NCBI GenBank assembly: GCA_045589175.1 | Contig: JAZNFS010000033.1 | Span: forward strand, 90,734-154,733 | Reading direction: 5' to 3' | Origin: Christensenellaceae bacterium | GTDB lineage: Bacteria > Bacillota > Clostridia > Christensenellales > Borkfalkiaceae | Length of the DNA stretch: 64,000 bases | Part shown: in pieces, positions 1,746-54,256 of the stretch | Layout of the letters: each line of letters begins with the position of its first letter | How positions within the stretch are numbered: position 1 is the stretch's first letter | Program-made: the position numbers and the translations under genes | The notes under the pieces: model-generated | Seen by the model: only the letters and a program-made list of their open reading frames with translations | Told to the model about the DNA's origin: nothing | The model's database searches: none

Positions 1746-1806
1746 AAATTTTCCTCACTAAAGTATTTAAAAAAGTGGCGCATACGATATTATAGCGCCA
1801 CTTTTG

Positions 1807-2523
1807 TTATTCTGGTAATTGCATTGTGCCAAGTTCGTTACAGCGCACGCGTAATACTTCTGCAATTTGATATTTATCTAAACCTTGGTTAACAAGGTCG
1901 GTATAATAAATAGGTTTATCAATAACGTAAACCTTTTCTTTTTTACGAAGATAGGTTAAATAAATGGGCAAGTCCATTCCTTTTTTATGGCAATATTTTG
2001 CAAGAGTAACAAACCCAGAAAAGAACCCTGTAAGAGTGCTAAAATATCCGTTTGAAGAATCTTCTGGGAAAATAATTAACGACGCGTTATTTTCAAGCGT
2101 TCTTACGCTTTCTTTTAAAGTGCTTTTAAAACGGTGATCACGATAAGTTGAAATTAAAGTAAGCCCTCTATAAAACGCCCACGCTACAGGTGCTGCTATT
2201 ATACTAAACAACTTTGCACCCCATTTACTCCAATGCTTCTTTTGATAAAAATAAATTTCCGAAAGATACTTATAAACTTCTTTTACGCTTGAGTTCATTT
2301 CATAAGTACCCCAAAATCTAAATGGCTTTGGAAAATGCATTTCTAAGGTAAGTGGCGCGCTTGCTCCAACGTGATTGCTTAAAACGAGCGACCTATCTTG
2401 AAATTCCTCACCAAGAAAAACAAAGCGTGGCTTTTTTATAAAAATTCTTAAAATTGCCTTTACGCATTTAAACCAAACGCGTCTTTCACCAGGCTTAAGT
2501 TTATTCTTCTTTTCTTTTGCCAT
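1807..2523 (-). CDS. Lysophospholipid (PlsC-like) acyltransferase family protein
   Basis: Motifs NHVGASAP and IFPEDSSNG resemble the NHxxxxD and FPEGTR blocks of acyltransferases. Start chosen at MAKEKK (ATG 2523, GGGAG RBS) rather than the TTG at 2541. Confidence 0.5.
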   Translation of the reverse strand: MAKEKKNKLKPGERRVWFKCVKAILRIFIKKPRFVFLGEEFQDRSLVLSNHVGASAPLTLEMHFPKPFRFWGTYEMNSSVKEVYKYLSEIYFYQKKHWSKWGAKLFSIIAAPVAWAFYRGLTLISTYRDHRFKSTLKESVRTLENNASLIIFPEDSSNGYFSTLTGFFSGFVTLAKYCHKKGMDLPIYLTYLRKKEKVYVIDKPIYYTDLVNQGLDKYQIAEVLRVRCNELGTMQLPE

Positions 2524-2807
2524 TTTTCTCCCATTTTTCAAAATTTACCAAAACACCAAAGCGTTTTATTTTGTACTTTTAACAAACACATTTCTTTTGT
2601 TTATTATATAATACAAATGAAAAAATTTCAAGTAATTTTGAACATTTTTTCGCGTGATAATAGCGTTTTCATCTACCTTTCACAATTCAACACGTAGTTG
2701 TTCGTTTGTTATGGCAAAAACAGTTGCACTTTATTAAAATTATTGGTATAATAAGTTATACTATTAATCAATTATTTGGTTGTGCAAATCGCACAATTAG
2801 GTGTAAA

Positions 2808-3788
2808 ATGAAAGTATTTAAAAAAATAAGCGCTCTTTTTATTTGTTTTGCGCTTTTGTTTGCCTCCGCTTGTAACACAAGCGATCCTATAGTTTCTAAT
2901 ATGTTTGCTTCTCAATACTGGCTTTCTAATACAGAAGCCGAAATTGGCGAAATCAATGAAACTAGTGTTTATACACTTTCTTTCGTTGAAGCAGAAGTGG
3001 AAGAAGGCGAAACCAAATTAACCTCAACTTTAAGTGGAACTTTCACAACGAATATTCAAAATTCAACTTATAAAGGTCAATCTTGTTACAAGTTTACAAC
3101 CTCACTTTCTTCAAGTGGAAATTACTCTTACGGTGATAAAACGGTTGATTTTAACGATACGATTACTTCCACCGTTTACTTTTTAGGAATTTCTGCAAAA
3201 TTTTTCCCACTTTATAGTGAAAAAACAGTTAAAACTACTGCGCCAACAAAAATTTCGGGCTTTGACTTTGTATCCCTTGAATATTCGGTTACAACTACTT
3301 ACAATAAAGAAGAAAAATCGGCTTTTGTTAAAGTTACTTCAAACGCGGCAGAAGATGCCCCATATAAGGTTGCCGAAAGCGAAAAAACCTATACGAAACT
3401 AAACAAAAACGGTGCTTATTTTGATAACGAAAGTTTAATTTTTATTCCACGCGCAAGTGATTTATTATCGGGTTTTTCAGCTTCTTTTAATACGATTGAC
3501 GCACCTTCTCAAGAATTTCATAATATGCATCTTGCAGTATCGTCAACTGCGCCAACTAGCGAAATTAAACTTGATGATTACACTATTGACAACGTAAAAG
3601 CTCCTCAAACCTTTAACTGCTATAATGCAACCATTTCAATTAATAGCACGTTTTCAGGTTTACCATTAAAACTATATTACTCTGCCGATGCAAAAACTCA
3701 CGGCAAGCGCCTTGTTAAAATGGAAACCGAACTTGGTTACTCTCTTGGCAAGATAGTTTATACTTTACAGTCTATAACTCACGCTTAA
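2808..3788 (+). CDS. Hypothetical lipoprotein
   Basis: Internal ATG at 2808 follows an AGGTG RBS. The signal peptide MKVFKKISALFICFALLFASAC carries a lipobox. The rest is Ser/Thr-rich with no recognisable domain. Confidence 0.6.
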   Translation: MKVFKKISALFICFALLFASACNTSDPIVSNMFASQYWLSNTEAEIGEINETSVYTLSFVEAEVEEGETKLTSTLSGTFTTNIQNSTYKGQSCYKFTTSLSSSGNYSYGDKTVDFNDTITSTVYFLGISAKFFPLYSEKTVKTTAPTKISGFDFVSLEYSVTTTYNKEEKSAFVKVTSNAAEDAPYKVAESEKTYTKLNKNGAYFDNESLIFIPRASDLLSGFSASFNTIDAPSQEFHNMHLAVSSTAPTSEIKLDDYTIDNVKAPQTFNCYNATISINSTFSGLPLKLYYSADAKTHGKRLVKMETELGYSLGKIVYTLQSITHA

Positions 3789-4006
3789 TTATTTATCATA
3801 CGAAGGAAATTATGGAACAAGCTCCTCAGCCCCAACCGCGTGGCAATTTTAAAACTTATTTTTATCACAATTTAAATATACGCAAATAGCGATCCTTTAA
3901 CTTCATTGCCACCAATGAAATATTTTGCGTTCGCTTTTTTGCGAGCGCTTTTTTATTGCTTTTTATTGATATAAAAGCAAAATCTAATAAGGAATAGGTA
4001 ATATCA

Positions 4007-5401
4007 ATGGATGAATTAAAGGAAAACGAGTTATTAACTCAAGAATTTTCTCAAGAAATAGTACAAATAGTACGTGAAAATTCAGGTGAAAATTTACGCG
4101 AGTTGCTTAGCGACTATCACGAAAACGATATAGCCGAAGCTTTAGAACTTTTATCCCCACAAGAACGTAAAAAACTTTATAACACCTTAAGTGACGAAAC
4201 TTTATCTGAAATTTTTGCCTTTTTAGAAAATCCTGCTCCATTCGTTGAAGAACTTTCAAACGAAAAGGTTGCCGACATTATAGAAAACATGGCTTCAGAC
4301 GATGCCGTTGACCTTTTAGAAGAACTTGACGAAGACAAACAACGCGACCTTATTGAACTCTTAGACGAGGAAGTAGCGCACGACGTTGAACTTATCAATG
4401 CTTATAACGACGAAGAGATAGGTAGCTTGATGACAAACGACTTCGTTTGCGTTAACCAAAACTTAAGCGTTAAAAACGCAATGAAAAAGGTTGTAAAAGA
4501 TGCTGGCGAAAACAACAATATTTCCACTATTTTCGTAACCGATGACAACGGCGTTTATAAAGGTGCCTTTTATCTTCGCGATCTTGTTATTGCGCGAAGC
4601 GAAACTCCGCTTGAAAAAATTATAATAGGTTCGTTCCCTCATGTTTATGCTTTTGATAAAATTGACGATCGCCTTACCGATATAAAAGAGTATGCCGAAG
4701 CAATTTTGCCCATTTTAGATGCCGATAATCGCCTTATAGGCGCACTTACAAGTAGTGATATCGTTGAAGCAGTTGAAGAAGAACAGGCTGAAAACTATGC
4801 AAAACTTGCAGCTCTTCCAGAAGAAACCTTTGAAAGAACTGGTGCTAGCGGTATAATAAGAAATGCTTTTAGAAGACTACCTTGGCTTCTTATTTTGTTG
4901 TTTTTAAGTTTATTTATAGGCGCGTATATAGGGCTTTTTGAAAGCGCAATTATCGCTCTTCCTATATTAGTAAACTTCCAACAACTTATTTCGGGTATGA
5001 GCGGTAACGCTGGAACTCAAACTCTTGCAGTTACGGTTAAACTTTTAGATGATCCCGATTTAACTACAAAAGAAAAGATAAAGCACGTTTTAAACGAAAT
5101 TAGAATTGGCCTTATAATAGGTATTGTTACCGGCTTTATATCAGCGATAGCCATTAGCGCTTACGCCTATATAACTTCAAACGATCCATCCTTTTTAACC
5201 GCCCTTAACGTTGGTGGAGCGGTTGGTCTTGCAATGTTAGCGTCATCAACCACCTCAACCTTAACGGGCTGTATAATTCCTATCACTTTAGATAAATTAA
5301 AAATCGACCCTGCAACCGCAAGCGGACCACTTATTACTACGCTTAACGACTTTATTGCAATAACCGTTTACTACGGAATCGCTCTGTTAATCTTGTTGTA
5401 A
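4007..5401 (+). CDS. mgtE: Magnesium transporter MgtE
   Basis: 464 aa. An acidic N-domain is followed by a CBS pair and a C-terminal TM domain with the MgtE-type segment SGMSGNAGTQTLAV. Confidence 0.85.
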   Translation: MDELKENELLTQEFSQEIVQIVRENSGENLRELLSDYHENDIAEALELLSPQERKKLYNTLSDETLSEIFAFLENPAPFVEELSNEKVADIIENMASDDAVDLLEELDEDKQRDLIELLDEEVAHDVELINAYNDEEIGSLMTNDFVCVNQNLSVKNAMKKVVKDAGENNNISTIFVTDDNGVYKGAFYLRDLVIARSETPLEKIIIGSFPHVYAFDKIDDRLTDIKEYAEAILPILDADNRLIGALTSSDIVEAVEEEQAENYAKLAALPEETFERTGASGIIRNAFRRLPWLLILLFLSLFIGAYIGLFESAIIALPILVNFQQLISGMSGNAGTQTLAVTVKLLDDPDLTTKEKIKHVLNEIRIGLIIGIVTGFISAIAISAYAYITSNDPSFLTALNVGGAVGLAMLASSTTSTLTGCIIPITLDKLKIDPATASGPLITTLNDFIAITVYYGIALLILL

Positions 5402-5470
5402 TTGATTATTGATTCATTATAAAGATAGCGTTATAAAGTATCCACAAAGGATTTTAACTGAATAATAGAT

Positions 5471-5509
5471 AAAACTCGACTTAGAAAAAAAGTCGAGTTT
5501 TATTTTTTT
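5471..5509. terminator. Bidirectional intrinsic terminator between mgtE and the Fic gene
   Basis: Hairpin AAAACTCGACTT-AGAAAAAA-AGTCGAGTTTT is flanked by T-runs. Confidence 0.6.
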
Positions 5510-5526
5510 ATCCCTGTGTTTCTTCT

Positions 5527-6381
5527 TTAATTTTCTTCTTCGTAGTAGTAAGAATAATCTATACCATTCATAAAGATTTCACGGTCATCTATCTTGTCCG
5601 TTAAAGCATTTTTGATAAGAGCTAAAATATCACTATAATCAACAACACTTAATTTCATTGCTTCTAAATATTCAGTTTTATCAATTTTGCTCCAATCGAT
5701 ACATTTAGAAAGATTTTTCTTTAGTATTATATCTAACCAAATACGAGTAGTTCTGCCGTTGCCTTCCATAAAAGGATGCGCAACGTTCATTTCAACGTAT
5801 TTTTTTACGATTTCTTCTACTGTGTTTTCAGGCATTCTTTCAATAGTATTCAAAGTTTGCTCTAAATAACCAACACTTGCAAATACGAAACCACCCTTAC
5901 TAATATTTAACTTCCTAATTTGCCCTGCAAAATCGTATAAACCACCAAATAAATAAGAGTGGATTTGTTGCAAGCCGTTTATCGTTCCAACTTCAATATC
6001 ATTAATAAGACCACTTTCAAACATTTCGTAAGCCTTGTTCTTGCTTTGCTCGTCGATAGACGTGCCTTTTGTTTTAACCCATTTTAGAAATACGGCTGAC
6101 TTTTTGCTTGGAAGAATTGCTATAAGCAAATTAAGTCCGTCGTCATCTATAACGTCCGTCAAATATTTCTTGCCGTCTTTAGCCGTTAATTTCAGTTGTC
6201 TACAAATTGATGACAACTGATTATTTCTCTTTTTTAAGGTGTTCCAATATTTACGTGGAGAAGTGCTTAAAGAAAGGGCTTCTATAATATCAACTGCACA
6301 CAACCACCAATGAGAACTTTCTTCATCCCACACAGAACGAACAGGAACATTATCAAAAAATCTAATAGACGTTTTAATCAT
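5527..6381 (-). CDS. Fic/Doc family protein (AMPylase-type) with an N-terminal Bro-N-like domain
   Basis: The Fic motif [12 protein letters not shown] is present. The N-terminus ([30 protein letters not shown]) resembles the Bro-N phage antirepressor domain. Confidence 0.75.
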
Positions 6382-6589
6382 TTTTATCCTCGCTCACGAT
6401 TTCTAATATATCGTTTAAACCGCAATCAAGGGCGTTGCATATTTTAAAAAGTATATCCATATGCACGGTTTCGTTTCTACCAAGTTTCGCCATAGCGGTA
6501 GTAGTGATACCCGCTTTTAAGCGTAGGTCCTCTTTACGCATATCTCTATCAATAAGAATTTTCCATAATTTTTTATAACTTGCAGCCAT
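6374..6589 (-). CDS. XRE-family helix-turn-helix transcriptional regulator
   Basis: 71 aa with an HTH signature ([21 protein letters not shown]). Its 3' end overlaps the Fic gene start by 8 nt. Confidence 0.7.
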
Positions 6590-6764
6590 TTTTTAATCTC
6601 CGAAATGAAAGTCTATAAGCCATTTTTATTATTGTAGCACATATAAATAATTTTATCAAGATATTCTCCAATATTTAGAGAAAAATTTTATAAATTTTTT
6701 AGAAAAGTGCCTCAACTGACACTTTTAACTTTTTAAATAAATTTCGTGTGTTTTGCAAAGCAAA

Positions 6765-6800
6765 TGAAAAGACTAACGAAAAAATTTCGTTAGTCTTTTG
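6765..6800 (-). terminator. Intrinsic terminator downstream of gyrA
   Basis: Palindrome AAAAGACTAACGAAA...TTTCGTTAGTCTTTT with a U-run on the minus strand. Confidence 0.5.
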
Positions 6801-6966
6801 CAATCCTCTAAAAACCCCTATGTGAGGACACCGTTCATAGCGTGGCTTTTCGTTTTTTAATATAATTTTTTTCTGTGCTTTTTGTTTATATCAATCAAAA
6901 AAGCCTATCGTTTGATAGTCTTTTTTCTTATTATTTAGTTAGTTAATCAACTTATAGGGGCACTTT

Positions 6967-9654
6967 TTAATTTTCGCCGTTTTCTTCGGTTGCTCTTTCT
7001 GTTACGCTTTCAACAGCAACGTCTTCAACAGCTACACCGTTTTCGGTTAAAACTTCTTCGCCCAAATCTTCTTTTTCTTCTTCAGCGTGAGGGACTACCG
7101 CAACGGTAACGACTCTGCCACCGTCAACCTTCATTACCTTAACGCCCTTAGTATCTCTACCGATTTTTGAAACGTCACAGGCAGGAGTTCTAATAACAAT
7201 ACCGTTATCGGCAATAAGCATAATATCTTGATCATCTTTAACGAGTTTTAAGCTTACAAGTCTGCCAGTTTTATCGTTAAATACGCCAGCCTTAATACCC
7301 TTACCTCCACGAGATTGTAAACGGTAATCTTCGATATCACTACGTTTACCAAAACCGTTTGCGCTTATAGTTAAAACGTCAAATTCTGGTTTAACAACAG
7401 TCATATCAACAAGCATATCGTCTTCGCTTATTAACATACAGCGAACGCCTTGAGTATCTCTACCCATAGCGCGAACGTCGTGTTCGCTAAATCTGATACA
7501 CTTACCTTCGTAAGAAGCGGCTAAAATTTCATCATCACCCGAAGAAACTTGAACTGAAATAAGTTCGTCGCCTTCGTTTAAGTTAATAGCAATCTTACCG
7601 TTCTTTCTAATGTTATCAAATTCGCTTACTGCCGTTTTCTTAATTAAACCGCGACGAGTTGCTAAAACGATATATTTCTTTCCATCAACGGCTACTTCGC
7701 TTTCACCGTTAACTTCTTTGCTTGTATTTTCTTCGCCTTCTGCTTCTACTTGAACTTCTTGATCTTCGCTTTCTACTGCTCCCGCATTTGTTTCGTTAAG
7801 AGGAATAATTGCAGAAACGTGTTCGCCTTCGGCAAGTGGCAATAGATTTACCATTGCTCTACCGCGTGCAGCCTTAAGCCCTTCTGGAATTTCATAGCCC
7901 ATAAGTCTATAAACTTTACCAAAGTTGGTAAACATTAATAAGCGGTCGTGCGTTGAAGAGATAAACATATCTTCAACAAAGTCTTCTTCTTTTGGCTTAT
8001 GACCGGTTACACCCCTGCCACCACGTTTTTGAGCGCGATATTCTTCCAAAGATAAACGCTTAATATATCCTAAGTGAGTAACGCTAATAACCACGTCTTC
8101 TTTCTTAACGAGGTCGGCAATGTCGATTTCAGAAAGGTCGTAAGAAAGTTCGGTTTTTCTTGGAGTTGGATATTTTTCTTTAAGTTCGATAAGTTCGTTT
8201 CTAACGATGGCAAGAACCCTTTCAGGTTTTTCTAAAATATCACGTAAATCAGCCATTAGTTCATCTAAAGCAGCGAGTTCGGCTTGTAATTTTTCAACTT
8301 CTAAAGAAGTTAAACGTTGTAAACGCATATCTAAAATAGCGTTTGCCTGCTTTTCAGAAAGTTCAAACGATGCAATTAAGTTTGCTTGCGCTTCTTGACG
8401 ATCGCGCGAGCGTTTAATTACTGCAATAACCTCATCAATAGAAGAAAGAGCAATAACTAAGCCTTTAACGATATGTTCTCGTTCTTCGGTTTTTGCAAGG
8501 TCGTATCTTGTTTTTCTTGTAACTACTTCAACTTGGTGCTTAACGTAAGCTTCAAGAATTTGTTTTAGGTTAAGAATTTTTGGTTCACCGTCAAGCAAAG
8601 CAAGCAAGGTAATACCGTTACTAACTTGAAGTTCGGTGTGCTTATAAAGCATATTTAATAAAACTTGTGGATTTGCATCCTTTTTAACGTCGATAACGAT
8701 TCTCATACCGTGACGATCTGATTCATCGTTAATATCTGCAATACCTTCAATTTTTTTATCTTTTACAAGCTCTACAATGTACTTAATAAGCTTTTCTTTA
8801 TTAACTTGGTAAGGAAGTTCGGTTACAACTATTCTGTGCCTTGTTCCGTTATTAAAGTCTTCAATTTCACATCTACTTCTTAAAATAACGCTACCACGAC
8901 CAGTGCGGTAAGCATTTTTTACGCCGGCTCTACCAAGTTGAATTGCCCCGGTTGGATAATCTGGTGCAGGAATATATTCCATTAATTCATCGATAGTTAT
9001 TTCAGGGTTTTCAATTAAAGCGATAGTGCCGTTTATAACTTCGGTTAAGTTATGAGGTGGAATATTAGTTGCCATACCAACGGCAATACCGTCCGACCCG
9101 TTAACTAAAAGGTTAGGGAATTTTGATGGTAATACGGTTGGTTGCATACGCGTATCATCGAAGTTAGGATAAAAATCAACCGTTTCTTTATCGATATCAC
9201 GAAGAAGTTCAACGGCAAGTTTACTCATTTTCGCTTCAGTATAACGGTATGCTGCCGGTGGATCACCGTCAACCGAACCAAAGTTTCCGTGCCCGTCAAC
9301 AAGTGGTAAGTTGGTTGAGAAATCTTGAGCGAGTCTTACGAGTGCGTCGTAAACCGAACTGTCGCCGTGTGGGTGATATTTACCAAGAACGTCACCAACG
9401 ATGGCAGCACATTTTTTATAACCCTTTTCAGGCGCTAAGCCCATTTCATTCATAGCGTAAAGTATTCTTCTATGAACCGGCTTTAACCCGTCGCGCACGT
9501 CGGGAATAGCACGCGAAACGTTAACCGCCATAGCGTACGCTATAAACGATTTTTTAAGTTCGTTATCAACTTCGATATTTATTATATTCGTTTGTGCAAG
9601 CGTTTGACGAAATTCTTCAGTCAATGCGCTATTCATTTCTTTTTTAGTTGCCAT
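6967..9654 (-). CDS. gyrA: DNA gyrase subunit A
   Basis: The active-site region [12 protein letters not shown] and the GyrA box are present. The C-terminal beta-pinwheel carries an acidic insertion and an acidic tail. Gene order is gyrB-gyrA. Confidence 0.95.
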
Positions 9655-9674
9655 AACAAATTCACCTACCCATC

Positions 9675-11636
<1,962 letters not shown>

Positions 11637-11959
11637 TTATATCAATTTATATAATTATATAATTATATTATATAATATAGTAGAAAATTTGTAAAGCAAA
11701 TTTTTCACTTTTATGTGGATAATCACAAAAAAATATATATTTTTTTGCAATTTTTGGCGCTAGTTATTAACAAATTTCCTTTTTGCGCGCTTTTTGAAAT
11801 TTAATTTGCTTATTTTTTTAGTTTTTTCATTTATTTTTATGTAGCGTATCGTTGACAAATAAGTAAATAATGCTATAATTAAAATGTAAACTGCTTACCT
11901 ATTTTTCATTATACTTGTTTTTTAAAAGCTGTTTGCCAAAAAACTGCGAGGTTGATTTT

Positions 11960-42055: not shown

Positions 42056-42103
42056 TTCTCCTTCCACCGCTAAAGCGGTCCCCCTTCCTCCCGGAGGACG
42101 GCT
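42056..42103 (+). repeat. GC-rich repeat, type B copy 1 (TTCTCCTTCCACCGCTAAAGCGGTCCCCCTTCCTCCCGGAGGACGGCT)
   Basis: Carries two short hairpins (ACCGC-TAAA-GCGGT and TCCTC-CCG-GAGGA). Near-identical copies lie at 42616 and 44721. Confidence 0.6.
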
Positions 42104-42161: not shown

Positions 42162-42539
42162 ATGTCGCTTGATTATAATAAAAAAAATATAACACTTGCA
42201 AAAAATTTACGCAAGAATGCAACGCCTCAAGAGAATCATTTATGGTATGACTTTTTATCAAAATATGATATTAGGTTTCAGCGACAAAAAGCAATAGATA
42301 ATTTTATTGCAGACTTTTATTGTCATAAAGCAAAACTTGTTATAGAAATTGACGGTTCGCAACATTATACCGAAAAGGGGAAAAGTCAAGACTTTTTTAG
42401 AACCGAGATTTTAGAGGAATATAATTTACAAGTTATACGATTTACAAACTTCGATATTGATTCCAACTTTCAGGGCGTATGCGAGTATATCGACAAAGTA
42501 GTAAAGCAAAATATTATAAACTATAAAAAGCGAATTTAA
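42162..42539 (+). CDS. DUF559 (Vsr-like endonuclease fold) protein
   Basis: Carries the ATPQENHLW..FQRQKAI.NFIADFYC..AKLVIEIDGSQH..VIRF pattern typical of the DUF559 family. Confidence 0.65.
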   Translation: MSLDYNKKNITLAKNLRKNATPQENHLWYDFLSKYDIRFQRQKAIDNFIADFYCHKAKLVIEIDGSQHYTEKGKSQDFFRTEILEEYNLQVIRFTNFDIDSNFQGVCEYIDKVVKQNIINYKKRI

Positions 42540-42615: not shown

Positions 42616-42667
42616 CGCTTTCTCCTTCCACCGCTGAAGCGGTCCCCCTTCCTCCCGGAGGACGGCT
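42616..42667 (+). repeat. GC-rich repeat, type B copy 2
   Basis: 50/52-nt identity with copies 1 and 3. Confidence 0.6.
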
Positions 42668-44551: not shown

Positions 44552-44720
44552 TCTCTTTTAATTAAATATTATAGCACGGTAGAATATCGTTATGGTCAAA
44601 TGATAAACTACCGTGCTTTTTTATTGTTTTGGTTGTTATATTTTTTTTGAGACCTTTCGACTGACGCTCAAGGTGACATTACAATGCTCAACATGACAAA
44701 AGAAAAAGCGCGGTGTATAA

Positions 44721-44772
44721 CGCTTTCTCCTTCCACCGCTAAAGCGGTCCCCCTTCCTCCCAGAGGACGGCT
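44721..44772 (+). repeat. GC-rich repeat, type B copy 3 (followed by TTTTTT)
   Basis: CGCTTTCTCCTTCCACCGCTAAAGCGGTCCCCCTTCCTCCCAGAGGACGGCT. Confidence 0.6.
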
Positions 44773-44869: not shown

Positions 44870-47800
44870 TTAGTAGTAAATAACTTCGATTGCTGTTATT
44901 CTAGCTTGACCGTTCGTTGCACTACCTGTATTGCCTACGCCAAAGGTTGTTGTTGTTGCATTAACTGTTACAACTGTTCCGCTAGTAATATTGCTACCAT
45001 TATGTGTTAAACAGCCACTGTTGTTTACTACATATGTAATTTTTACTGATTTAATAGTTTTACCATTAGCTGCACTTATTGTAAGTTCTGCAGATTCAGA
45101 TTGATATAAACGCCAGTTTGTGCCAGATGTATAGTATTTACCACTATTGCCGCCACCGTTTACTGTAACACTAATATTATTATCCATTGTCATGGTTGTA
45201 TATTGTGTACCATTCTCCCAACCATTTGCACTAGCATAATTAGCAATTGAAACAGTTATTTCTGTTTCTTGTACGCCAGCTTGCTTTCCACATACACAAC
45301 TACCACTTGATAAGTCGTGTTCTTCAGTTTCTAACGGAGCATTACAAATTGAACATGGCTTCCAGTGGTTACTATCATCAGAACCCCAAGTACTTGAAGC
45401 AACGCATTCATGTTTATCAATATCTAGTAATGTACAACCATTAAATTCAATAGTTGCATAATAGTTTAATATTTTACCAGTAGCAGTAATTGTATCGCCA
45501 ACAGAAACTCTATCAATACCATCACCAGCTAATTTATAACATTTAACTACATAATCACTATGATTTAAAATTTTAATATCAACAGTAATACTAGTTGCAT
45601 TTGGTGTATATGCATAGCTAATATTATCAACTACACCAACTAAAGTAACTTGATTAGGATAAGTTGTTGTATTATTATTTTTATCAGCAATTGCAAATAT
45701 GTCAGCTAACAAATCGCCAGTTGCTATAGTTTCTTTGTGTGATTCATCATTTCCACAAACACGAACGTGAGTGTCGTTTTCTGCAGGAGTCCATGCGCCA
45801 TATTTGTGACCTAAAGCAGGAGCTAAAACTTTTTCACATACTTCACATTTTTGAGCTGTTTCACAAGTAGCAGCCGCACCAGGAGTATGAGCTACCTTTT
45901 CATCTGCAAGATCACTACATACTGTACAAGCGTGCCAATGGTTGTCACCGTCTGATGACCAATCTTCTGAAGCGGTGTGACCAGTTTCAGGAACCTCATC
46001 TTTGTGTTTAGTTGATTGGCAACCTTCAAAGTTACAATGGTAAACAGTATAACCAGCTTCTGTACAAGTAGGAGCAACAGTTTCGCCCTTTACTGAGAAA
46101 TCACAAGTGTGTGATAATGCACGACAAGTTGTACATTTGTTATCTGCGCCGTAAACGTGAGCTTCTTTTTCAGTTGCAGGGTTACCGCAAGTTTCACATG
46201 CGTGCCAGTGACCTTCGCCATCGCTTGACCATTCAGCTGAAGCAACGTGATCAGCTAAAGGAAGTTCTTCTGTGCTAACTGTTTCGCCACAGTCATCACA
46301 AACAACAGTTATTGAGCCAGCTTCTGTGCAAGTAGCATCTTCTTGAGTTGTAGTAGTTTCAGCATGTGCACAAGGAATAACTTCGCCATAGAACTTACAA
46401 TAGAAACCTTCGTATGAAACTTTGCAAGGACCTACTGTTGTATACTTTTGATCGTTTCTTGTACCAAACCAGTAATCTTCATCATTAACTACAGCGATAA
46501 GAGTTTGCTTTTCTGAATCATATCTGTAAACAGTTGAAGCAGTTGCTTCGTAAGCACCATTTACATGCGTTCCGCTAACTACACAGTTAATATATAATTT
46601 TGATTCACCATTTAAAGTGTATAAGTAGTAACCACCTTCTGTAGCTTCAAGATATACGTCAATAGCTGCTTCTACGTTTTCAGTAGTAGCTAAATAGTAA
46701 CTATTCATACCACCAGCTAGGTAGTACATCTTGTCATCAAGATTGCCTTGAGCCATACCAAACTTGTATGCAGTTCCTACTACTGGAGCTTTAATTAAAC
46801 CAAATTCAGGAGCTTTATGCTCAAAAGCAATAATTGTTGCATTTTTGAATTGAATTGCATCGTTATAAGTGCTTAATTCACCATATAAGTAAACAATATC
46901 ACCAGCAACTGGTTTGAATGTCATATCAGCATAACCAACACCGCGTGGATCGTAAGAACCGTAAACAGTTACTTTTAATTGACGGTTTTCATCGGTTACA
47001 TACATGTTACCATATTGTGCATTGTAAACTTCGGTAACAGTAACTTTTGCAAAGAATTTGCCCGCTGGAACTTCTGTGAATGCAGCGATATCAGCAAGAT
47101 CTGTAGGTGCTGTAAATGAAACGATATCAGCATTCTTCATTTGAGCTGTACCGTTGTATTGACCCATAGGACCAACAACTTTTACGTAATCACCAACAAC
47201 TGGTTTGCTTTCCATTTCACCGTATTTCTTGCCGTTACCATCGTATAAACCGTAAATGTAAAGTTTATCGCCGTTGCCATCCATAATGTACATATTGCCG
47301 TATTGTGCACTTGCAATTTCAACAACAACACCTTCTGCGATGTATTTATCAGCAGTGTAAACGTTATGTGCTTGTGCAGAACCAATAGCATTAAGTTCTT
47401 TAATAGCTGTAGTAAATTTGTTTAATTCAACTTTAAATGATTTAGTTGCAGTTTCACCGTTTAAAGTAGCAGTTGCAACTAAAGTAACAGTTGTTTTTCC
47501 CTCAGGAAGAGTGAATGTTGCAGTACCTTCAGCGTTATCAATAACAACTGCATCTGATTCAGATGCCCAAGTAAATGTAACTTCTGGGAATAAAGAACCA
47601 ACCATTGTTAAGTTAACAACTTTATCACTATTTAAACTTTCAACACATTCAAGAGCTTCTAATTCGAAAGCAACTCTGCCTGCATCGTCTAATTCAGCAG
47701 CGGTAATGTAACGGAAGATAGTTGTAGAGAAGCCATCAACTGTGATAGTAGCTGTTAAGCAAGCTCTTTCCATATTGCCAGGGTTGATAACTAAGTTGCC

Positions 47801-49321
47801 TTGGTCAATAGCAAAAGATCTTGGTGTACCGATGATGCGGTAAGAAACTTCGCAACCTTCAAGTTCAGCAGGAAGATTTACGTTTTTAGCAAGTGCAACA
47901 ACTGCTGCATCTAAACCGTTTTCAGCAATAATAGCATCGATAGCAGCAACAGCCTTAGCAGCTGTTTTACCAGCGTAAACGGTGCCTTCTGGGTCAGCAG
48001 TGCCACCTTTAACAACTGCGCTTGCGCTTAATGGAGCGATTTGGTGACCTTTGTAGTTACCTAAAATACCTGTTACAGATACTACGTCGCCAACTTGTAA
48101 AGAGCTTTGTAAGCCGATAAGAGCTGAACAAGTAGCATCGCTTGTTTTATATGCGTATGCGCCTTCGTAATATTTTGAAATAACAACAGGAACGTCAACA
48201 CCGCCCTTTGTAAGAACGAATAAAGTTTGAGTTCCGCTTGATAAATCAGGAGTATCTTTAATTTCTTTTACAGTCCAGTTAGTAAGTGATACTAATCTTG
48301 ATTGATTGTAGTATGCAGATTGTAAGTTACCGATAATGTCGTTATCAACAGCGTAAACCTTTTCGCTTACGTTGATAGGAGCAACGTCGGTATCAACAAC
48401 TAAATTACCACCGGCGTTAGTTTCCATAAGGCCGTTGTAATCGGTGTTAATTGTTTCGGTAACGGTGATGTGAACGCCTGGTTGTAATAATGCTGCGTTT
48501 GCATCGTCTGTTTTAACGCGGTATAAGTAGTAACCAGCAGTGAAATCATCGTTAACCATATAAAGAGTTACGTTTTTGTATTCATCACTATATACTGTAC
48601 CGATTGTTACAACGTAACCACTCATAACGATACCTACACCGGTGTTAGTGTACCAATAGTCAACTTCTTGTAAAGGTTCTTTTTGTTCAGAAACAGTCAT
48701 TCTGTAGCTCTTGGTAGTGCTTACGCCGTTGTATGTGAAAGTAGCGTTAATTTTTACTTGTGGGTTAAGTGATGATGGGTAAACGTAGCAAGTTTTACCG
48801 TCTTCACTGATTTCAAGATAGTTTGCATATTCTTCGTCAACCGACCAAGCGATAGTAGCAGTGTGACCTTTAAATTCGCAAGAAGTATCAAGCGCGAAGT
48901 CTTCAACTACGGTGCCGTTGTTGTTAACAAAGTTGTAAGAACCACTAAAATCGTAAACGCTTAATGGATTAACGTAAACGGTAAAGGTTTTAGAAATTCT
49001 TTTAGATTTGAATAAAACTGTAAGGTCAACTTCCGTTCTTTCGGTAGGTAAACCAACTTTTGCAACGTATTGTCTTTCAATTCCATTTTCTTTGTCTGCT
49101 TCTACTTCTGTTAACGTAATTAAATCGCTATTAGAAGACCAGGTAGCTTTAAATTCGCCAATTGTGCCTGGAAGAACAAAGTCTTCTGAAATCGTTTGAC
49201 CATCTTTTTCAAAGATGTACATATCCAATGTTGCTTGAGGGTCTGTTTTGCTACAAGCTACTAAGCCGAAGCAAGAAAGAGCAAGAACAAGCGATAGGAT
49301 GACAAGTAGGGTTTTCTTCAT
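44870..49321 (-). CDS. 1483-aa surface lipoprotein with multiple OB-fold (nucleic-acid-binding-like) modules and Cys-rich HWHxCxxC repeats
   Basis: Lipobox LVAC. Repeated segments of the type AQYGNMY..DG....YG.Y...VGD.V.V.G....YN...Q.KNA resemble OB modules. SDGxxHWHACxxC occurs three times. Confidence 0.55.
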   Translation of the reverse strand: MKKTLLVILSLVLALSCFGLVACSKTDPQATLDMYIFEKDGQTISEDFVLPGTIGEFKATWSSNSDLITLTEVEADKENGIERQYVAKVGLPTERTEVDLTVLFKSKRISKTFTVYVNPLSVYDFSGSYNFVNNNGTVVEDFALDTSCEFKGHTATIAWSVDEEYANYLEISEDGKTCYVYPSSLNPQVKINATFTYNGVSTTKSYRMTVSEQKEPLQEVDYWYTNTGVGIVMSGYVVTIGTVYSDEYKNVTLYMVNDDFTAGYYLYRVKTDDANAALLQPGVHITVTETINTDYNGLMETNAGGNLVVDTDVAPINVSEKVYAVDNDIIGNLQSAYYNQSRLVSLTNWTVKEIKDTPDLSSGTQTLFVLTKGGVDVPVVISKYYEGAYAYKTSDATCSALIGLQSSLQVGDVVSVTGILGNYKGHQIAPLSASAVVKGGTADPEGTVYAGKTAAKAVAAIDAIIAENGLDAAVVALAKNVNLPAELEGCEVSYRIIGTPRSFAIDQGNLVINPGNMERACLTATITVDGFSTTIFRYITAAELDDAGRVAFELEALECVESLNSDKVVNLTMVGSLFPEVTFTWASESDAVVIDNAEGTATFTLPEGKTTVTLVATATLNGETATKSFKVELNKFTTAIKELNAIGSAQAHNVYTADKYIAEGVVVEIASAQYGNMYIMDGNGDKLYIYGLYDGNGKKYGEMESKPVVGDYVKVVGPMGQYNGTAQMKNADIVSFTAPTDLADIAAFTEVPAGKFFAKVTVTEVYNAQYGNMYVTDENRQLKVTVYGSYDPRGVGYADMTFKPVAGDIVYLYGELSTYNDAIQFKNATIIAFEHKAPEFGLIKAPVVGTAYKFGMAQGNLDDKMYYLAGGMNSYYLATTENVEAAIDVYLEATEGGYYLYTLNGESKLYINCVVSGTHVNGAYEATASTVYRYDSEKQTLIAVVNDEDYWFGTRNDQKYTTVGPCKVSYEGFYCKFYGEVIPCAHAETTTTQEDATCTEAGSITVVCDDCGETVSTEELPLADHVASAEWSSDGEGHWHACETCGNPATEKEAHVYGADNKCTTCRALSHTCDFSVKGETVAPTCTEAGYTVYHCNFEGCQSTKHKDEVPETGHTASEDWSSDGDNHWHACTVCSDLADEKVAHTPGAAATCETAQKCEVCEKVLAPALGHKYGAWTPAENDTHVRVCGNDESHKETIATGDLLADIFAIADKNNNTTTYPNQVTLVGVVDNISYAYTPNATSITVDIKILNHSDYVVKCYKLAGDGIDRVSVGDTITATGKILNYYATIEFNGCTLLDIDKHECVASSTWGSDDSNHWKPCSICNAPLETEEHDLSSGSCVCGKQAGVQETEITVSIANYASANGWENGTQYTTMTMDNNISVTVNGGGNSGKYYTSGTNWRLYQSESAELTISAANGKTIKSVKITYVVNNSGCLTHNGSNITSGTVVTVNATTTTFGVGNTGSATNGQARITAIEVIYY

Positions 49322-49360
49322 CTTTTTTTTCTCCTTAAATTTGTTTAAAATAAATTTTAA

Positions 49361-50644
49361 TTATTTGATTTGAATATCGGCAAAATTTAAAATTGTTAAT
49401 TCGCCTGAATTTTCTTCATACTGATAGCCTTTCACACTAAACTGCTTGCCTACAGTAAATTCGTTTGTATAATTTGCGGGAACTTCAACGCTAAAGGTGA
49501 AGCTTTCAACTTCTTCCTTTACGCCGTCTTTCATGCGTTTTTGAGCCGTTGCTACAATGGTAAGAGTTGTTCCTTCAATCGACGAACTTACTACCGTTGC
49601 GTCAGTATAAAGGGTATCACTATATTGAGTAAGGTAATTTGTTGATGAATTAAATGTTAAAAGGTAATTTTTTTGAATTGGTGACGTGTGGTCCATTAGG
49701 TTAGCACCGTAAATCACGTCATATAAAATACCTGAAATTTGATAATTACCGTAATGCATTTGGATTGTACCAACTACACGGTATAAATGCCCTATCTTCA
49801 TTTTAGATGCTGCACTTGAAGAATATCCCGCATATACGTCAATCGCATATCTCGTGCCGTTTTCGTCATAATACTCTGCAACAAAAGTGCGAGTTCCGCT
49901 GTTTGAAATTCTTAAATCACAAATACAAGCGGTGAAGCGAACTTTTGAACCAGCTTCGGTTTCAACGTTGTAATATGCTTCCTCGTTATCAAAAAATTGC
50001 TTTAGAGTAATATCTTCGGGGTCGGTAGAGAATAGTGGGTCGTCAAGATCAGAATAAATACGAAGTTTAATTTTTCTTGCAAACGATTCTGCCTTTGCAA
50101 AATAACTGTTATATGGATACTTGTCTGTAGCCATACCGCCGTTTGAGCTAAAACCATTTTCAACCAATTCTAAATTTAGGCACTTAAAGTCGCTATCTTG
50201 TGCGGTTTTATACCATACGTAACCCAAATATCTTGTGCCATAACTATCCTTTTCGGCACGGGGAGCAGTTGCTTCCAATACGATTTCGGTTGCACTTGAT
50301 AAACGGGTTTTGGTAAATAATGATGCCGCTTTGCCCCATTTTTGCACGTTTCCGGTTGATTCGGGCGTGTCAATTTGGTAATATCTAACGGCTATAATAT
50401 TGCCTTGTTCTAATCTAAAACGGGTGGTATCACCGTCGGTATGGGCATCGACTGTTGCTCTGCCTATACCGTCGGTTAAAAATGATTTCCCCTCAAAACT
50501 TTTGTTTAATTTTAAACCAGAGGTGATTTCGTTATAATATTCGGTATTGTCAGCAACTTTTTCTTTTCCGCCATCGCAGGCAAAGAAAACTAAGCTACTT
50601 AACGTTATTAATATTAAAACGATAATCGATAAAATCTTTTTCAT
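49361..50644 (-). CDS. Thermonuclease (SNase) family lipoprotein with C-terminal OB-like domains
   Basis: Lipobox FFAC. The SNase core reads DGDTTRF...IDTPE...GKAAS.F......VLE......D.YGR.LGYV. Confidence 0.7.
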   Translation of the reverse strand: MKKILSIIVLILITLSSLVFFACDGGKEKVADNTEYYNEITSGLKLNKSFEGKSFLTDGIGRATVDAHTDGDTTRFRLEQGNIIAVRYYQIDTPESTGNVQKWGKAASLFTKTRLSSATEIVLEATAPRAEKDSYGTRYLGYVWYKTAQDSDFKCLNLELVENGFSSNGGMATDKYPYNSYFAKAESFARKIKLRIYSDLDDPLFSTDPEDITLKQFFDNEEAYYNVETEAGSKVRFTACICDLRISNSGTRTFVAEYYDENGTRYAIDVYAGYSSSAASKMKIGHLYRVVGTIQMHYGNYQISGILYDVIYGANLMDHTSPIQKNYLLTFNSSTNYLTQYSDTLYTDATVVSSSIEGTTLTIVATAQKRMKDGVKEEVESFTFSVEVPANYTNEFTVGKQFSVKGYQYEENSGELTILNFADIQIK

Positions 50645-50682
50645 TTTCTTAAATTTCTTTTCTTTATTATTTTTATTTGTTC

Positions 50683-52038
50683 TTATTTACCGCCACAGTT
50701 TGTGTATGCGTCAGCTAATGCTTGAGCTGCGGTCTTTTCGCCTCTTAATGCGAATACTAATGCTGTTCCAACTTGTTCACGTGCAGTTGAAGAACCAACG
50801 AATGCAGGTGAAGTGTAGAATCTTGAGCTTAATTCTCTTGCAACGTTTGCAGCTTGTGCAGTAAGTGATTCGGTATCAGCCATGTGAGCTACATAATCTG
50901 GGATATCAAATGTTGATAAACGGCAAGGATTGTAACCAGATGAGATTGAGAATGATGCTTGGAATGTAGGATCTAAAAGTTCCTTCATAAATAACCAAGT
51001 CATAAGTTGTTTTTCTTCGCTGTTAGATACGCCGTGACCATCCTTAAGCATAACTAGTGATGGACCTTGTGAAATAACTGAGTAATCAACTGAACCATCT
51101 TCTAAAGTTGAACCAGGAATTGGAGCAATACCCCATTCAAACTTATCGCCTGGGTCTTGGTGAGATGCACCACCAGATGAACCGATACAGTAAACTAAAC
51201 CGCCATCTTCAACACCCTTTGTGAATAGTGCGCTTGTATATGCGCCGTAGTCTTCTTGAGTTGTGATGTAACCTTCTTTATAGTATCCATTAAGTTGTTC
51301 TAACCAAGCAGTTGTTTCTGGGTTGTTAAATAAGAAGTGGTTTCCTTCTGCACTAGTGTAACCCCAACCGTTTTGTTCACACATTGTGATAAACCAGTTT
51401 GCTTCAGAGTCGTATCCTAAAGGAGTTGCAGTAGGATAAGCTTTTACGATAGTTTCGCATTGTGCCCAAAGTTGATCCCAAGTTGTTGCTACTGGAAGAT
51501 TTAAAGCATCAAGTGCAGTTTTGTTGTAATATAATAATTCGGTTGACTTAACAAATGGTAGAGTTAACATAGATTCTGCAGTGTAACCATTAGCTGCATA
51601 ACCAGCATAGTTAGTTGCATAACCTTCGTTATAGTAACCTGGAACGAAGTCTTGAACTTCTGTTGCAGTATAACCGTGTTCTGCACTTGAAATAAACTGG
51701 CTAAGATCAACTACCTTGCCGGTTTGAATGTATTGTGCAACGTGGTCTGGATAGCAGTATGCTAAGTCTGGTTGGTTTTGACCTTGGAAATCTGAAACGA
51801 TTTTTGACTTTACTTCGTCGTAGCCACCTGGTTGAGAGTGTTCTACCTTCCAACCTGGATATTTAGCTGTAAATGAAGCAATAGCGTTTGCAGTAACCTT
51901 TTGAAGTGCGTCACCTTGTGTTGAGTAGAAGAAGATGGTGTGTTCATAATCAACTGGTTCTTCAGTTTTACCACAAGCAGCCATTGTGCTAAAAAGCATA
52001 ACTACGAACATTAATGTTGCTAAAAGTTTGTTTTTCAT
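50683..52038 (-). CDS. ABC transporter substrate-binding lipoprotein (family 1 / CUT1 type)
   Basis: Lipobox MAAC. 451-aa solute-binding fold. Confidence 0.75.
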   Translation of the reverse strand: MKNKLLATLMFVVMLFSTMAACGKTEEPVDYEHTIFFYSTQGDALQKVTANAIASFTAKYPGWKVEHSQPGGYDEVKSKIVSDFQGQNQPDLAYCYPDHVAQYIQTGKVVDLSQFISSAEHGYTATEVQDFVPGYYNEGYATNYAGYAANGYTAESMLTLPFVKSTELLYYNKTALDALNLPVATTWDQLWAQCETIVKAYPTATPLGYDSEANWFITMCEQNGWGYTSAEGNHFLFNNPETTAWLEQLNGYYKEGYITTQEDYGAYTSALFTKGVEDGGLVYCIGSSGGASHQDPGDKFEWGIAPIPGSTLEDGSVDYSVISQGPSLVMLKDGHGVSNSEEKQLMTWLFMKELLDPTFQASFSISSGYNPCRLSTFDIPDYVAHMADTESLTAQAANVARELSSRFYTSPAFVGSSTAREQVGTALVFALRGEKTAAQALADAYTNCGGK

Positions 52039-52148
52039 GTGTTACTTCCTTCCTAAAAAAAATTTTTATTTTTGTTAACGCACTTTCGTGCGATTTAACC
52101 TTTAATTGTTTTGTGCGCCTTTACACGCGCGTTATTCTATAATAAGGC

Positions 52149-53114
52149 TTAACCCTTTGTTCCACTCTTTGATACGCCGTGCATAATGTATTTACGGCAG
52201 AAGATGAATAGTACAAACAATGGAAGTGATACTATACATACCGCCGCCATTTTTAAAGTGTTAAGAGGTTCGCTTCCGTAGTCACCACCGTAAATCAAAC
52301 CATCTTTATCGGTAAATCCGCCGGTAACCCAGTTGGTTATCATTTGCCACTTATCCATATTTACAAGACGAGGCCAAATGTATGAGTTCCACGTTCCTAT
52401 AAACTTTAAAAGAGTTATTGATATTAAGGTTGGTGCTGTTAACGGAACCATTACCTTAATTAAATAGCCCATATCGGAAAGCCCGTCAACCTTTGCTGCC
52501 TGGTATAGCGAATTTGGTATTTGCATAAAGTTGTTTCTCATAAGGTAAATATAATATACGCTTACTAAAAAAGGAACTATTAAAACGGTGTAAGTATCCT
52601 GCCAATGAAGTTTTGATATAGTTAAGTAGTTAGTAATGGTGTACATTTCGCCCGGTATCATCATCGTGCCAAGCATTATTGAGAATAGTAAGTTTTTGCC
52701 CTTAAAATCCATTCTTGCTAATGCGTATGCCGTGATTATTATTATCACCAAGCCTATTATAGTGGAGGTGAAACCTACTACCAATGTGTTAACTAAAATT
52801 TGTGCAAAGCTCGTTCCACTTGAAGAGCCTTCGGTTTGGTTTAAAACCATTGAATAGTTTTCCCACATTGCCTTTTCTGGAAAGAACGATGAGGTTGGAT
52901 CGCGGTATTCAGGCTCGCTCTTTATAGATGATATAAACATCCAAAAGAAGGGTAAAAATGCAAGAATAGCGCAGATTGAAAGAAAGAAATAAACAAAAAT
53001 ATTTTTAATTATTTTTTGTATTCTTTGCTTTTTATATTCCTTCTCGATATCGAAAATGGGGTTTTCTTGTGGTAGAGATGAATTTTCAGAAATGTTTTTA
53101 ATATTATCTTCCAT
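52149..53114 (-). CDS. Carbohydrate-type ABC transporter permease (MalG/UgpE-like)
   Basis: Six TM segments and an EAA-like loop. Confidence 0.8.
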   Translation of the reverse strand: MEDNIKNISENSSLPQENPIFDIEKEYKKQRIQKIIKNIFVYFFLSICAILAFLPFFWMFISSIKSEPEYRDPTSSFFPEKAMWENYSMVLNQTEGSSSGTSFAQILVNTLVVGFTSTIIGLVIIIITAYALARMDFKGKNLLFSIMLGTMMIPGEMYTITNYLTISKLHWQDTYTVLIVPFLVSVYYIYLMRNNFMQIPNSLYQAAKVDGLSDMGYLIKVMVPLTAPTLISITLLKFIGTWNSYIWPRLVNMDKWQMITNWVTGGFTDKDGLIYGGDYGSEPLNTLKMAAVCIVSLPLFVLFIFCRKYIMHGVSKSGTKG

Positions 53115-53125
53115 ATTGCACCTCC

Positions 53126-54256
53126 TTAGTAGGTTACGCGCTTTTTACTAACGCGTAAGTTGATAGCAGTTATAATCATTATTATTATAAACAATAATAA
53201 AGAACCTGCGTATGCGTAACCCGTTTGACCGAGTTCTAAGTATTGGTAAATGTAACCTACCATCGTTCCCATATCGTAGTTAGTACCCATATCTGCGCCG
53301 AATACACCTACTACTGCCGAATATTGTTTCATACCGCCCATAATACCCGTAATCAATAAATAAGATATCATTGGAGAAATTAAAGGAGTGGTTATTTTCC
53401 ATAATACGGTGCTCTTTGACGCCCCGTCAATTTTTGCAGCATCGTAATATTGCTTGTTAACGCTTTGTAACGCGCTGAATAAAATTAAAATTTTAAAAGG
53501 TAAGCCAGACCAAACTTCATATACAATCATTATAGAATATTTAGTCCACGGAATATCAACCTTGCCTAAATGCCAAACTAAACTTTCGTTTGTGCTTAAG
53601 TTCGTTCCCCTTATCCAGTTGATTGGGTCAGCCCCAAACCAGCCAAGTAAATCGTTTACTATACCAAGTTGTGCTGTTCCAGCAGCGATTTGACGTGTCG
53701 TTCCTATTACTTGGAAGAAGGTTAAGAAAACCGCACCCATCGCTAACGAGTTGGTTAGGTATGGTAAAAACAATACCGTTTGAAAGGCTTTTTGTAAAGG
53801 TTTAATTGAGTTTAAGGCTACCGAAATGAATAATGCAATAAATGTTGAAAGTGGAACTGATACGAAGGTTAGTACCATCGTGTTGGTTAAGCATTGCAAA
53901 AAGTTTGCTCCGCCCGTTCCCGTGTCACCCTTTAAAACACGAATAAAATTTTCAACCCCCCAGCCGTTATAGGTGCTGGCTAAACCATTGTATTCTTGCT
54001 TAAAAGAGTTTACGAACGCACTTACGATGGGATAGAAAGTGAATATAACCATTAAAAGCAAAGCGGGTAAAACAAATAACCAGCCTTGTTGAGCACGGAA
54101 AAAACGACTTAACTTTTCTTTGGTTGAAAGTTGTGGAATTGCCTCGCTCGCTTTTTTAGCTACGGGAGAATCCGTATTTTCAGCATCGCTTTCTATAACA
54201 ACGTTTTGTTCGGTAATATTTTCATTTTCGGGCAAATTTCTTTTGTCCATAGTCAT
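53126..54256 (-). CDS. Carbohydrate-type ABC transporter permease (MalF/UgpA-like)
   Basis: Polytopic permease with an N-terminal extension. Confidence 0.8.
   Translation of the reverse strand: MTMDKRNLPENENITEQNVVIESDAENTDSPVAKKASEAIPQLSTKEKLSRFFRAQQGWLFVLPALLLMVIFTFYPIVSAFVNSFKQEYNGLASTYNGWGVENFIRVLKGDTGTGGANFLQCLTNTMVLTFVSVPLSTFIALFISVALNSIKPLQKAFQTVLFLPYLTNSLAMGAVFLTFFQVIGTTRQIAAGTAQLGIVNDLLGWFGADPINWIRGTNLSTNESLVWHLGKVDIPWTKYSIMIVYEVWSGLPFKILILFSALQSVNKQYYDAAKIDGASKSTVLWKITTPLISPMISYLLITGIMGGMKQYSAVVGVFGADMGTNYDMGTMVGYIYQYLELGQTGYAYAGSLLLFIIIMIITAINLRVSKKRVTY

Follow-up and report, generated by a model that had tools for sequence, protein, structure and literature searches.

A 64,000-nt stretch of the genome of a Christensenellaceae bacterium (contig JAZNFS010000033.1, positions 90,734 to 154,733; referred to here as the window, in whose numbering coordinates are given) carries a pair of overlapping genes between mgtE and gyrA. 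They encode a small helix-turn-helix (HTH) protein and a protein that joins a Bro-N domain to a Fic domain. As an insert, the pair is accessory and distributed horizontally; its larger product is, judged by sequence, a class III Fic enzyme with an inhibitory helix of its own. The combination of Bro-N and Fic is already catalogued as the PADLOC candidate defence family PDC-S04. As it stands, the locus joins this known but unvalidated family as an ordinary member. We lean towards the explanation that the two genes form an HTH-controlled accessory cassette, in which a self-inhibited Fic enzyme would be triggered through Bro-N and would abort infection by AMPylation of GyrB or ParE.

The HTH gene (6374–6589, minus strand) encodes 71 amino acids and the Bro-N–Fic gene (5527–6381, minus strand) 284. 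Both genes share 8 nt (6374–6381, ATGATTAA), and a GAGGA ribosome-binding site of the Fic gene is situated within the HTH gene. Coordinates, lengths and strand agree exactly with a preliminary description of the locus, which had also reported a Bro-N-like domain joined to a complete Fic motif. Both domain assignments stand with Pfam matches above the curated cutoffs. The small protein matches HTH_26 (XRE/Cro-C1 type) with 57.8 bits (cutoff 22), and is proposed to be a controller-type autoregulator. In the large protein, residues 14–103 match Bro-N (35.6 bits, cutoff 25.6) and residues 135–220 match Fic (PF02661; 50 bits, cutoff 24). The N-terminal part, approximately residues 1–105 (6067–6381, minus strand), displays the beta-sheet plus helix DNA-binding fold of the Bro-N/KilA-N/APSES type, belongs to Bro-N (PF02498) and is a putative sensor for DNA or a phage factor. 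The catalytic motif at residues 202–213 (5743–5778, minus strand) is intact and fits HxFx(D/E)GNGRxxR.

Comparison with known Fic proteins placed the enzyme close to NmFic of N. meningitidis. Residues 108–281 align end to end with NmFic at 64% identity, and the NCBIfam NmFic equivalog is matched with 275 bits (cutoff 230). A search of PDB gave an E-value of 3e-69 and the same fold, and NmFic (entries 2G03, 3S6A, 3SE5 and 5CGL) is among the closest known systems. With a numbering offset of +95, the catalytic H107 of NmFic corresponds to H202, the inhibitory pair S182/E186 to S277/E281, the auto-AMPylated Y183 to Y278 and the interface residue E102 to E197, which is conserved. E156 is replaced by D251, and the second auto-AMPylation site, Y188, is missing (E283). 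The preliminary description had proposed a search for an inhibitory Fic helix. The alignment to NmFic locates its motif, S277-Y-Y-Y-E281 (5539–5553, minus strand), in the enzyme's own C-terminus, and an AlphaFold model calculated with a diverse 48-sequence alignment places the C-terminal helix at residues 267–279. By the equivalog match and the shared fold, the protein is assigned to class III, as a protein AMP-transferase that this helix is predicted to inhibit.

Tetrameric NmFic is inactive, while the monomer auto-AMPylates Y183 and thereby frees the helix; the activated enzyme then AMPylates GyrB at Tyr109 (reviewed in PMC12894286). The product of the adjacent gyrB gene in the window keeps the target tyrosine, Y122 in the ATP lid, at the position equivalent to GyrB Tyr109. 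In contrast to NmFic, the present protein carries an additional N-terminal Bro-N domain of 105 residues, and its gene is mobile and accessory and preceded by an HTH gene. Tetramerisation and a GyrB target may be ascribed to it by analogy.

All 121 close homologues possess a complete catalytic motif; 98 of them have the identical sequence, and the remaining 23 are substituted exclusively at variable positions. SYYYE is invariant across the same 121 sequences, and E282 is more than 90% conserved. The canonical motif (S/T)xxxE(G/N) thus retains its S and its E, but ends here in E282 instead of G or N. G at this cap position was found in none of the nine representatives of Bro-N-fused clusters, whereas 8 of 11 class III representatives lacking Bro-N display SYxYEG. 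Purifying selection acts strongly on both genes, with ratios of nonsynonymous to synonymous substitution rates of 0.05–0.09 for both domains of the Fic gene and 0.03–0.18 for the HTH gene. In most comparisons the Fic half is constrained as strongly as the Bro-N half or more so. Class III Fic domains elsewhere are fused to RloB-like, XRE HTH, multi-pass transmembrane or uncharacterised N-termini (P0143, P0173, P0140, P0152, P0165 and P0207). Such interchangeable fusions fit a class III Fic effector that is combined with swappable sensor or regulatory domains.

The PADLOC PDC-S04 model PDLC04841 matches the protein over nearly its full length (residues 2–283 against profile positions 3–291 of 292; 440 bits, E-value 1.1e-132). 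PDC-S04 is a computational, unvalidated candidate family of the same architecture that occurs in defence islands; the HTH controller is outside the PADLOC definition. Taken by itself, the Bro-N half has further matches in PDC-S13 and in an uncharacterised PHROG family. Database matches of the 284-aa protein number more than 8,000, and NCBI annotates the homologues as Fic adenylyltransferases. The top 120 matches are 82–93% identical, 279–293 residues long (nearly all 283–284) and derive mostly from metagenome-assembled genomes (MAGs) of Clostridia. An exhaustive search revealed approximately nine clusters at 50% identity that share the Bro-N plus Fic architecture, down to 35% identity. In the most distant of them (P0135, P0137, P0179 and P0148), the catalytic motifs are degenerate (KPFEHGSERSLR, KPFDKCNGPAIR, KPFVAGNEIVAT and HPFENGNGIALR) and so are the inhibitory helices; to judge from these motifs, such members are probably pseudo-enzymes that retain Bro-N.

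A validated single-gene Fic defence system, SoFic with its antitoxin AS1, is available for comparison (PMC12249575). It is likewise a Fic-domain AMPylator and acts as an abortive-infection effector with a small accessory gene (PMC12249575). Identity of the present protein with SoFic was considered and rejected: the PADLOC SoFic model matches with an E-value of 1.5e-4 over the Fic core only, and the NCBIfam SoFic model reaches 13 bits (cutoff 550).

The accessory nature of the pair is evident from the sister species. The host has a sole close relative in the genome collection, a sheep-rectum Clostridia MAG (GCA_017522945.1) whose MgtE is 95% identical and whose mgtE-gyrA gap measures 158 nt. 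Alignment with blastn showed that the whole insert (5404–6835; 1,432 nt) is replaced by 26 nt in the sister species, while the window is collinear with it on both sides (1759–5403 and 6836–11671; loci L006 and L098–L103). Six places, each from a different sample, display the empty junction (same loci). The insert separates mgtE (4007–5401, plus strand) from gyrA (6967–9654, minus strand), which is followed by gyrB (9675–11606, minus strand), and the flanking annotated genes are ordinary housekeeping genes out to 21.7 kb. Interruption of a housekeeping neighbourhood, as claimed before, is thereby shown, and the pair is not conserved at this site across the genus; the sister species lacks it there, and the Fic motif is intact. 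No phage genes were detected in the annotated flanks (1–21.7 kb), the base composition of the insert is not distinguishable from the rest, and Rfam detected no RNA element in the intergenic regions around the pair.

The reverse situation was found at a second locus. The sister genome carries a Bro-N–Fic gene (P0118, 85% identity) without HTH gene downstream of surE, and the corresponding site of the window (44552–44683) is empty, with 132 nt compared to 1,513 nt. The two Fic copies differ in 15% of their residues, with 1.10 synonymous substitutions per synonymous site (dS). For six of eight compared housekeeping genes, dS between the two genomes is 0.41–0.93 and protein identity 82–98%; the other two, encoding SNase and a solute-binding protein, lie within a nearly identical tract and display a dS of 0.01–0.06. 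Moreover, the window Fic is closest (93%) to a copy in an unrelated context and not to that of the sister species. The reciprocal sites and the divergence of the alleles indicate that the two genomes acquired different alleles independently rather than by a simple move.

The nearly identical tract extends over 5.5 kb (47671–53156) and is 98.5% identical to the sister genome, compared to 82–91% for the rest of the window. It contains the terminal part of a gene for a large surface protein, the SNase and solute-binding protein genes and a permease gene, and suggests recent recombination or transfer between both species. A repeat found between genes, about 55 nt long and with the core TCCTTCCACCGCTAAAGCGGTCCCCCTTCCTCC, resembling repetitive extragenic palindromes or miniature inverted-repeat transposable elements, occurs three times in the window (42059–42091, 42623–42655 and 44728–44760, plus strand), with none expected by chance. 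Two of these copies flank a DUF559 (Vsr-like) gene (42162–42539). In the sister genome the same repeat is situated on both sides of the surE-site Fic insertion (L105 7636–7687, 7800–7853 and 9110–9164). It was rejected as an end of the cassette, being absent from the window insert and all other Fic loci.

DNA homology among pair-bearing copies begins about 115 nt before the HTH start codon and extends to the Fic stop codon. The sequences thus delimit a minimal cassette of about 1.2 kb, consisting of promoter/operator, HTH gene and Bro-N–Fic gene, within the 1.43-kb insert. At the cassette ends we found no flanking direct or inverted repeats, no target-site duplication and neither terminal repeats nor a recombinase that travels along. 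Altogether, 84 loci with Fic proteins of 55–93% identity represent 59 distinct sites. Members of the 82–93% clade were found at nine or more chromosomal sites; the HTH-Fic pair is present at five of them and Fic alone at four. The surE locus of the sister species, again with Fic alone, is the tenth. Pairs reside between mgtE and gyrA, at sipL/veg, at a giant-protein gene with ResIII-Eco57I and AbiH, at murJ with a large serine recombinase, and at GH130/aminotransferase genes. The third of these contexts harbors the 93% homologue (L089 1–7536); its gene lies between that of the giant protein (more than 8,000 residues), which immediately precedes it, and those of the ResIII/Eco57I enzyme and AbiH on the downstream side. 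Fic alone is found at clpX/lon, downstream of an FAD oxidoreductase gene, between WYL and LexA-like genes with small genes also nearby, and after a gene for a 314-aa protein (L009). The sole plasmid copy, on Treponema pTS1, lies inside a type I restriction-modification (R-M) operon beside genes for HNH, KAP NTPase and abortive-infection (Abi) proteins. By plain count, the commonest neighbours are type I R-M subunits, ResIII, AbiH, RhuM, Schlafen/AlbA_2, serine recombinases and other PADLOC candidates. Reciprocally occupied and empty sites provide a clean natural example of minimal candidate defence cassettes that lack a recombinase and are scattered among housekeeping genes.

The most conserved part of the cassette precedes the HTH gene. 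A block of 40 nt (6645–6684, minus strand; TTTTCTCTAAATATTGGAGAATATCTTGATAAAATTATTT), predicted to serve as promoter and operator, is near-invariant at five independent insertion sites and exceeds the coding sequence in conservation. It includes a predicted −35 box (TTGATA, 6654–6659) and, 5 nt upstream of it, the palindrome TCTCTAA-ATA-TTGGAGA (6665–6681), which occurs once in the window and varies between G and A in its right arm (TT(G/A)GAGA). The predicted −10 box (TACAAT, 6631–6636) follows after a 17-nt spacer and has an upstream TG (extended −10), all on the minus strand. The resulting 5′ untranslated region (UTR) of the HTH gene would comprise about 35–40 nt. An AT-rich leader of about 375 nt had been described at this position. 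The spacer exists (6590–6966, 377 nt), but the conserved, predicted promoter is only about 40 nt away from the HTH start, and the spacer comprises more than the 5′UTR, namely an upstream hairpin and the ancestral gyrA 3′ region. The ancestral remainder of the mgtE-gyrA intergenic region (6836–6966) is common to the sister species and includes a gyrA terminator hairpin at approximately 6899–6930.

Strong terminators on both sides of the pair, part of the preliminary description as well, were confirmed as hairpins. One of them (5467–5505) is a predicted bidirectional intrinsic terminator with a 16-bp stem, serving mgtE on the plus strand and the Fic gene on the minus strand, and is absent from cassette copies at other sites. 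The other is a perfect 15-bp hairpin upstream of the cassette promoter (6767–6799, minus strand); it is specific to the mgtE-gyrA insertion and, as a predicted terminator, probably insulates the cassette from gyrA read-through. In total, four terminator-like sites were observed compared to 0.9 expected by chance.

According to the explanation that we favour, the HTH protein would bind the palindrome near the −35 box and thereby set a low, safe transcription of a potentially toxic enzyme. It would act as an autoregulator resembling R-M controller (C) proteins and would not neutralise the enzyme by protein contact. Through the 8-nt overlap, translation of the Fic gene would be coupled to that of the HTH gene. 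The enzyme would be held off by its own E281, probably also by oligomerisation as in NmFic, until a trigger acting through Bro-N, either phage DNA or a phage protein, relieves inhibition via auto-AMPylation of Y278. The active enzyme would then AMPylate Y122 of GyrB as its likeliest target and/or ParE, DNA replication would stop and the infection would be aborted. For this chain as a whole our confidence is a little better than even. The abortive-infection or defence role that had been suggested before is the best-supported reading, given the full-length PDC-S04 match and the R-M/Abi islands in relatives; the anti-phage function, like the gyrase target of the present protein, we infer.

Several points weigh against this explanation. 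The GyrB target and the Bro-N trigger are extrapolations, based on NmFic and on the logic of the domains, and promoter, operator and terminators are all predictions. Since the inhibitory motif ends in E282 instead of G or N, regulation may differ from that of NmFic. The 8-nt overlap and the fusion protein P0143, in which an XRE HTH is joined to a class III Fic domain, are compatible with a physical interaction of HTH protein and Fic enzyme. Many copies, that of the window included, stand alone among housekeeping genes. No single neighbour family accounts for more than 4 of 149 flanking proteins, and the neighbour census was made without a background comparison. Furthermore, the single published test of a PDC-S04 gene, from E. 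coli NILS69, revealed no defence phenotype, and the gene was called toxin-antitoxin-like (PMC12409345). As that gene represents a different, toxin-antitoxin-like subtype, we do not hold the negative result against the present one.

A classical type II toxin-antitoxin module, the other function considered in the preliminary description, would require the HTH protein to bind and neutralise Fic and to repress the operon, with addiction, stress dormancy or persistence as outcome. We consider this unlikely, although a small upstream gene overlaps the toxin gene by 8 nt, gyrase-targeting Fic toxins of the FicT/VbhT type are preceded by antitoxin genes, an XRE HTH is fused directly to class III Fic in P0143, and the E. 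coli gene was judged accordingly. In class I modules (VbhT/VbhA, FicT/FicA and Fic-1/AntF), the inhibitory helix is supplied in trans by the product of the upstream gene. Here, in contrast, the predicted helix resides within the class III enzyme, and none of the three types of HTH partner contains the (S/T)xxxE(G/N) motif. The HTH gene is missing from four of the nine first-surveyed sites of the 82–93% clade and from the tenth, and in Fic copies of 84–91% identity without it, the active site is intact and purifying selection persists. At 55–73% identity, a different, unrelated XRE family precedes Fic in 20 loci, either co-directionally with a gap of 57–73 nt or divergently with a gap of about 153 nt. 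It is this second family that is fused to class III Fic in P0143, with 45% identity to the free form. Moreover, a 78%-identical HTH protein (P0491), whose promoter is laid out in the same way, is encoded at the head of an unrelated methylase/helicase/Abi operon on a conjugative element. On these grounds, a class I Fic toxin-antitoxin module was rejected and the HTH protein is probably not an antitoxin. The missing motif, its dispensability, the replacement by other HTH families and the reuse in another operon lead us to regard it as a portable controller-like regulator. The P0491-type operon (L108–L113; HTH gene at L108 5001–5210) consists of genes for HTH_26, a C5 DNA methylase, an SNF2/ResIII helicase and either AbiTii or an AAA_23 ATPase; it is accompanied by PcfJ/PcfK and may be an uncharacterised defence operon.

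R-M controller proteins are small and regulate their own expression; following transfer, they govern the timing or restrict the level at which a dangerous gene is expressed. C.PvuII and C.AhdI are likewise small XRE-type HTH proteins encoded upstream of, or overlapping, a potentially toxic effector gene, and have a palindrome next to the −35 box of their own promoter. The close homologue at the head of a methylase-containing operon adds to this likeness. In contrast to the usual pair of C-boxes, a single palindrome is evident here, and the best named match of the HTH protein is VanU-like and below the cutoff. By analogy, the arrangement supports a C-protein-like organisation in the sense that the protein may work like a C protein, which is not a statement of family membership, and its DNA binding is putative.

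A physiological role outside defence, in which the enzyme tunes gyrase and DNA topology to the growth state and the position next to gyrA-gyrB is functional, is improbable in our view. It would agree with the 64% identity to an enzyme whose known substrate is GyrB Tyr109, with the adjacency of gyrA and gyrB in the window, and with locus L052 (2175–6861), where Bro-N–Fic directly follows three genes resembling dnaA, dnaN and recF. However, the sister species has no copy at the mgtE-gyrA site, and copies are distributed patchily, some of them in R-M/Abi islands and recombinase-bearing elements. Proximity to the origin or to gyrase genes was found at 2 of 59 sites, which is not significant by a rough Poisson estimate (P ~0.03–0.08); a gyrase link from gene position is therefore not claimed, and the adjacency in L052 and in the window (5527–11606) may be coincidence. 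In the window genome, gyrB-gyrA is not preceded by dnaA-dnaN-recF.

We assign a still lower probability to an antirepressor or transcription factor centred on Bro-N, with a regulatory or vestigial Fic domain, or to a prophage remnant as considered in the preliminary description. The Bro-N/APSES fold binds DNA, weak matches to PHROG anti-repressor families were obtained, distant clusters have degenerate catalytic motifs such as KPFEHGSERSLR, and one copy adjoins a LexA-like repressor gene and small genes. A vestigial Fic domain is at odds with the complete catalytic motif throughout the clade and with purifying selection on the Fic half that mostly equals or exceeds that on the Bro-N half. Against a prophage remnant stand the lack of phage genes in the annotated flanks, the absence of any full-length match in 50,697 phage records and the absence of a close relative, or any full-length match, among 2.9 million viral contigs.

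Returning to the HTH-controlled abortive-infection cassette, a bolder version of it appears possible to us but rather doubtful. Bro-N would be a phage-sensing switch on a gyrase-AMPylating class III Fic enzyme, which would thus accomplish abortive infection as a single protein. The systematic loss of the G/N cap in Bro-N fusions would reflect release by a Bro-N ligand rather than by concentration-dependent dissociation of a tetramer. HTH gene and promoter would constitute a portable 'establishment controller' that has been captured by different defence cargos, namely Fic and methylase/helicase/Abi operons, to survive horizontal transfer. Should the mechanism of the favoured explanation prove correct, the PDC-S04 Bro-N–Fic candidates would receive their first functional account, which would connect NmFic, a well-understood enzyme that AMPylates gyrase, with anti-phage immunity and would demonstrate a phage-type DNA-binding domain that gates a self-inhibited toxin. 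The shared HTH-promoter head suggests that controller regulation of the R-M type is reused for other toxic defence cargos. To the catalogued family, the present analysis adds the class III assignment with its systematically altered helix cap, the reciprocal sites, the minimal promoter-HTH-Fic cassette and the evidence for a portable controller.

Two further observations concern regions of the window beyond the insert. An M-box riboswitch is often found upstream of mgtE; at gathering score, Rfam detected no family anywhere in the 64 kb, including no M-box upstream of mgtE (3789–4006). The spacer between gyrB and a divergent aldo/keto-reductase/ferredoxin gene (11607–11914) is very AT-rich, with a G+C fraction of about 0.21.

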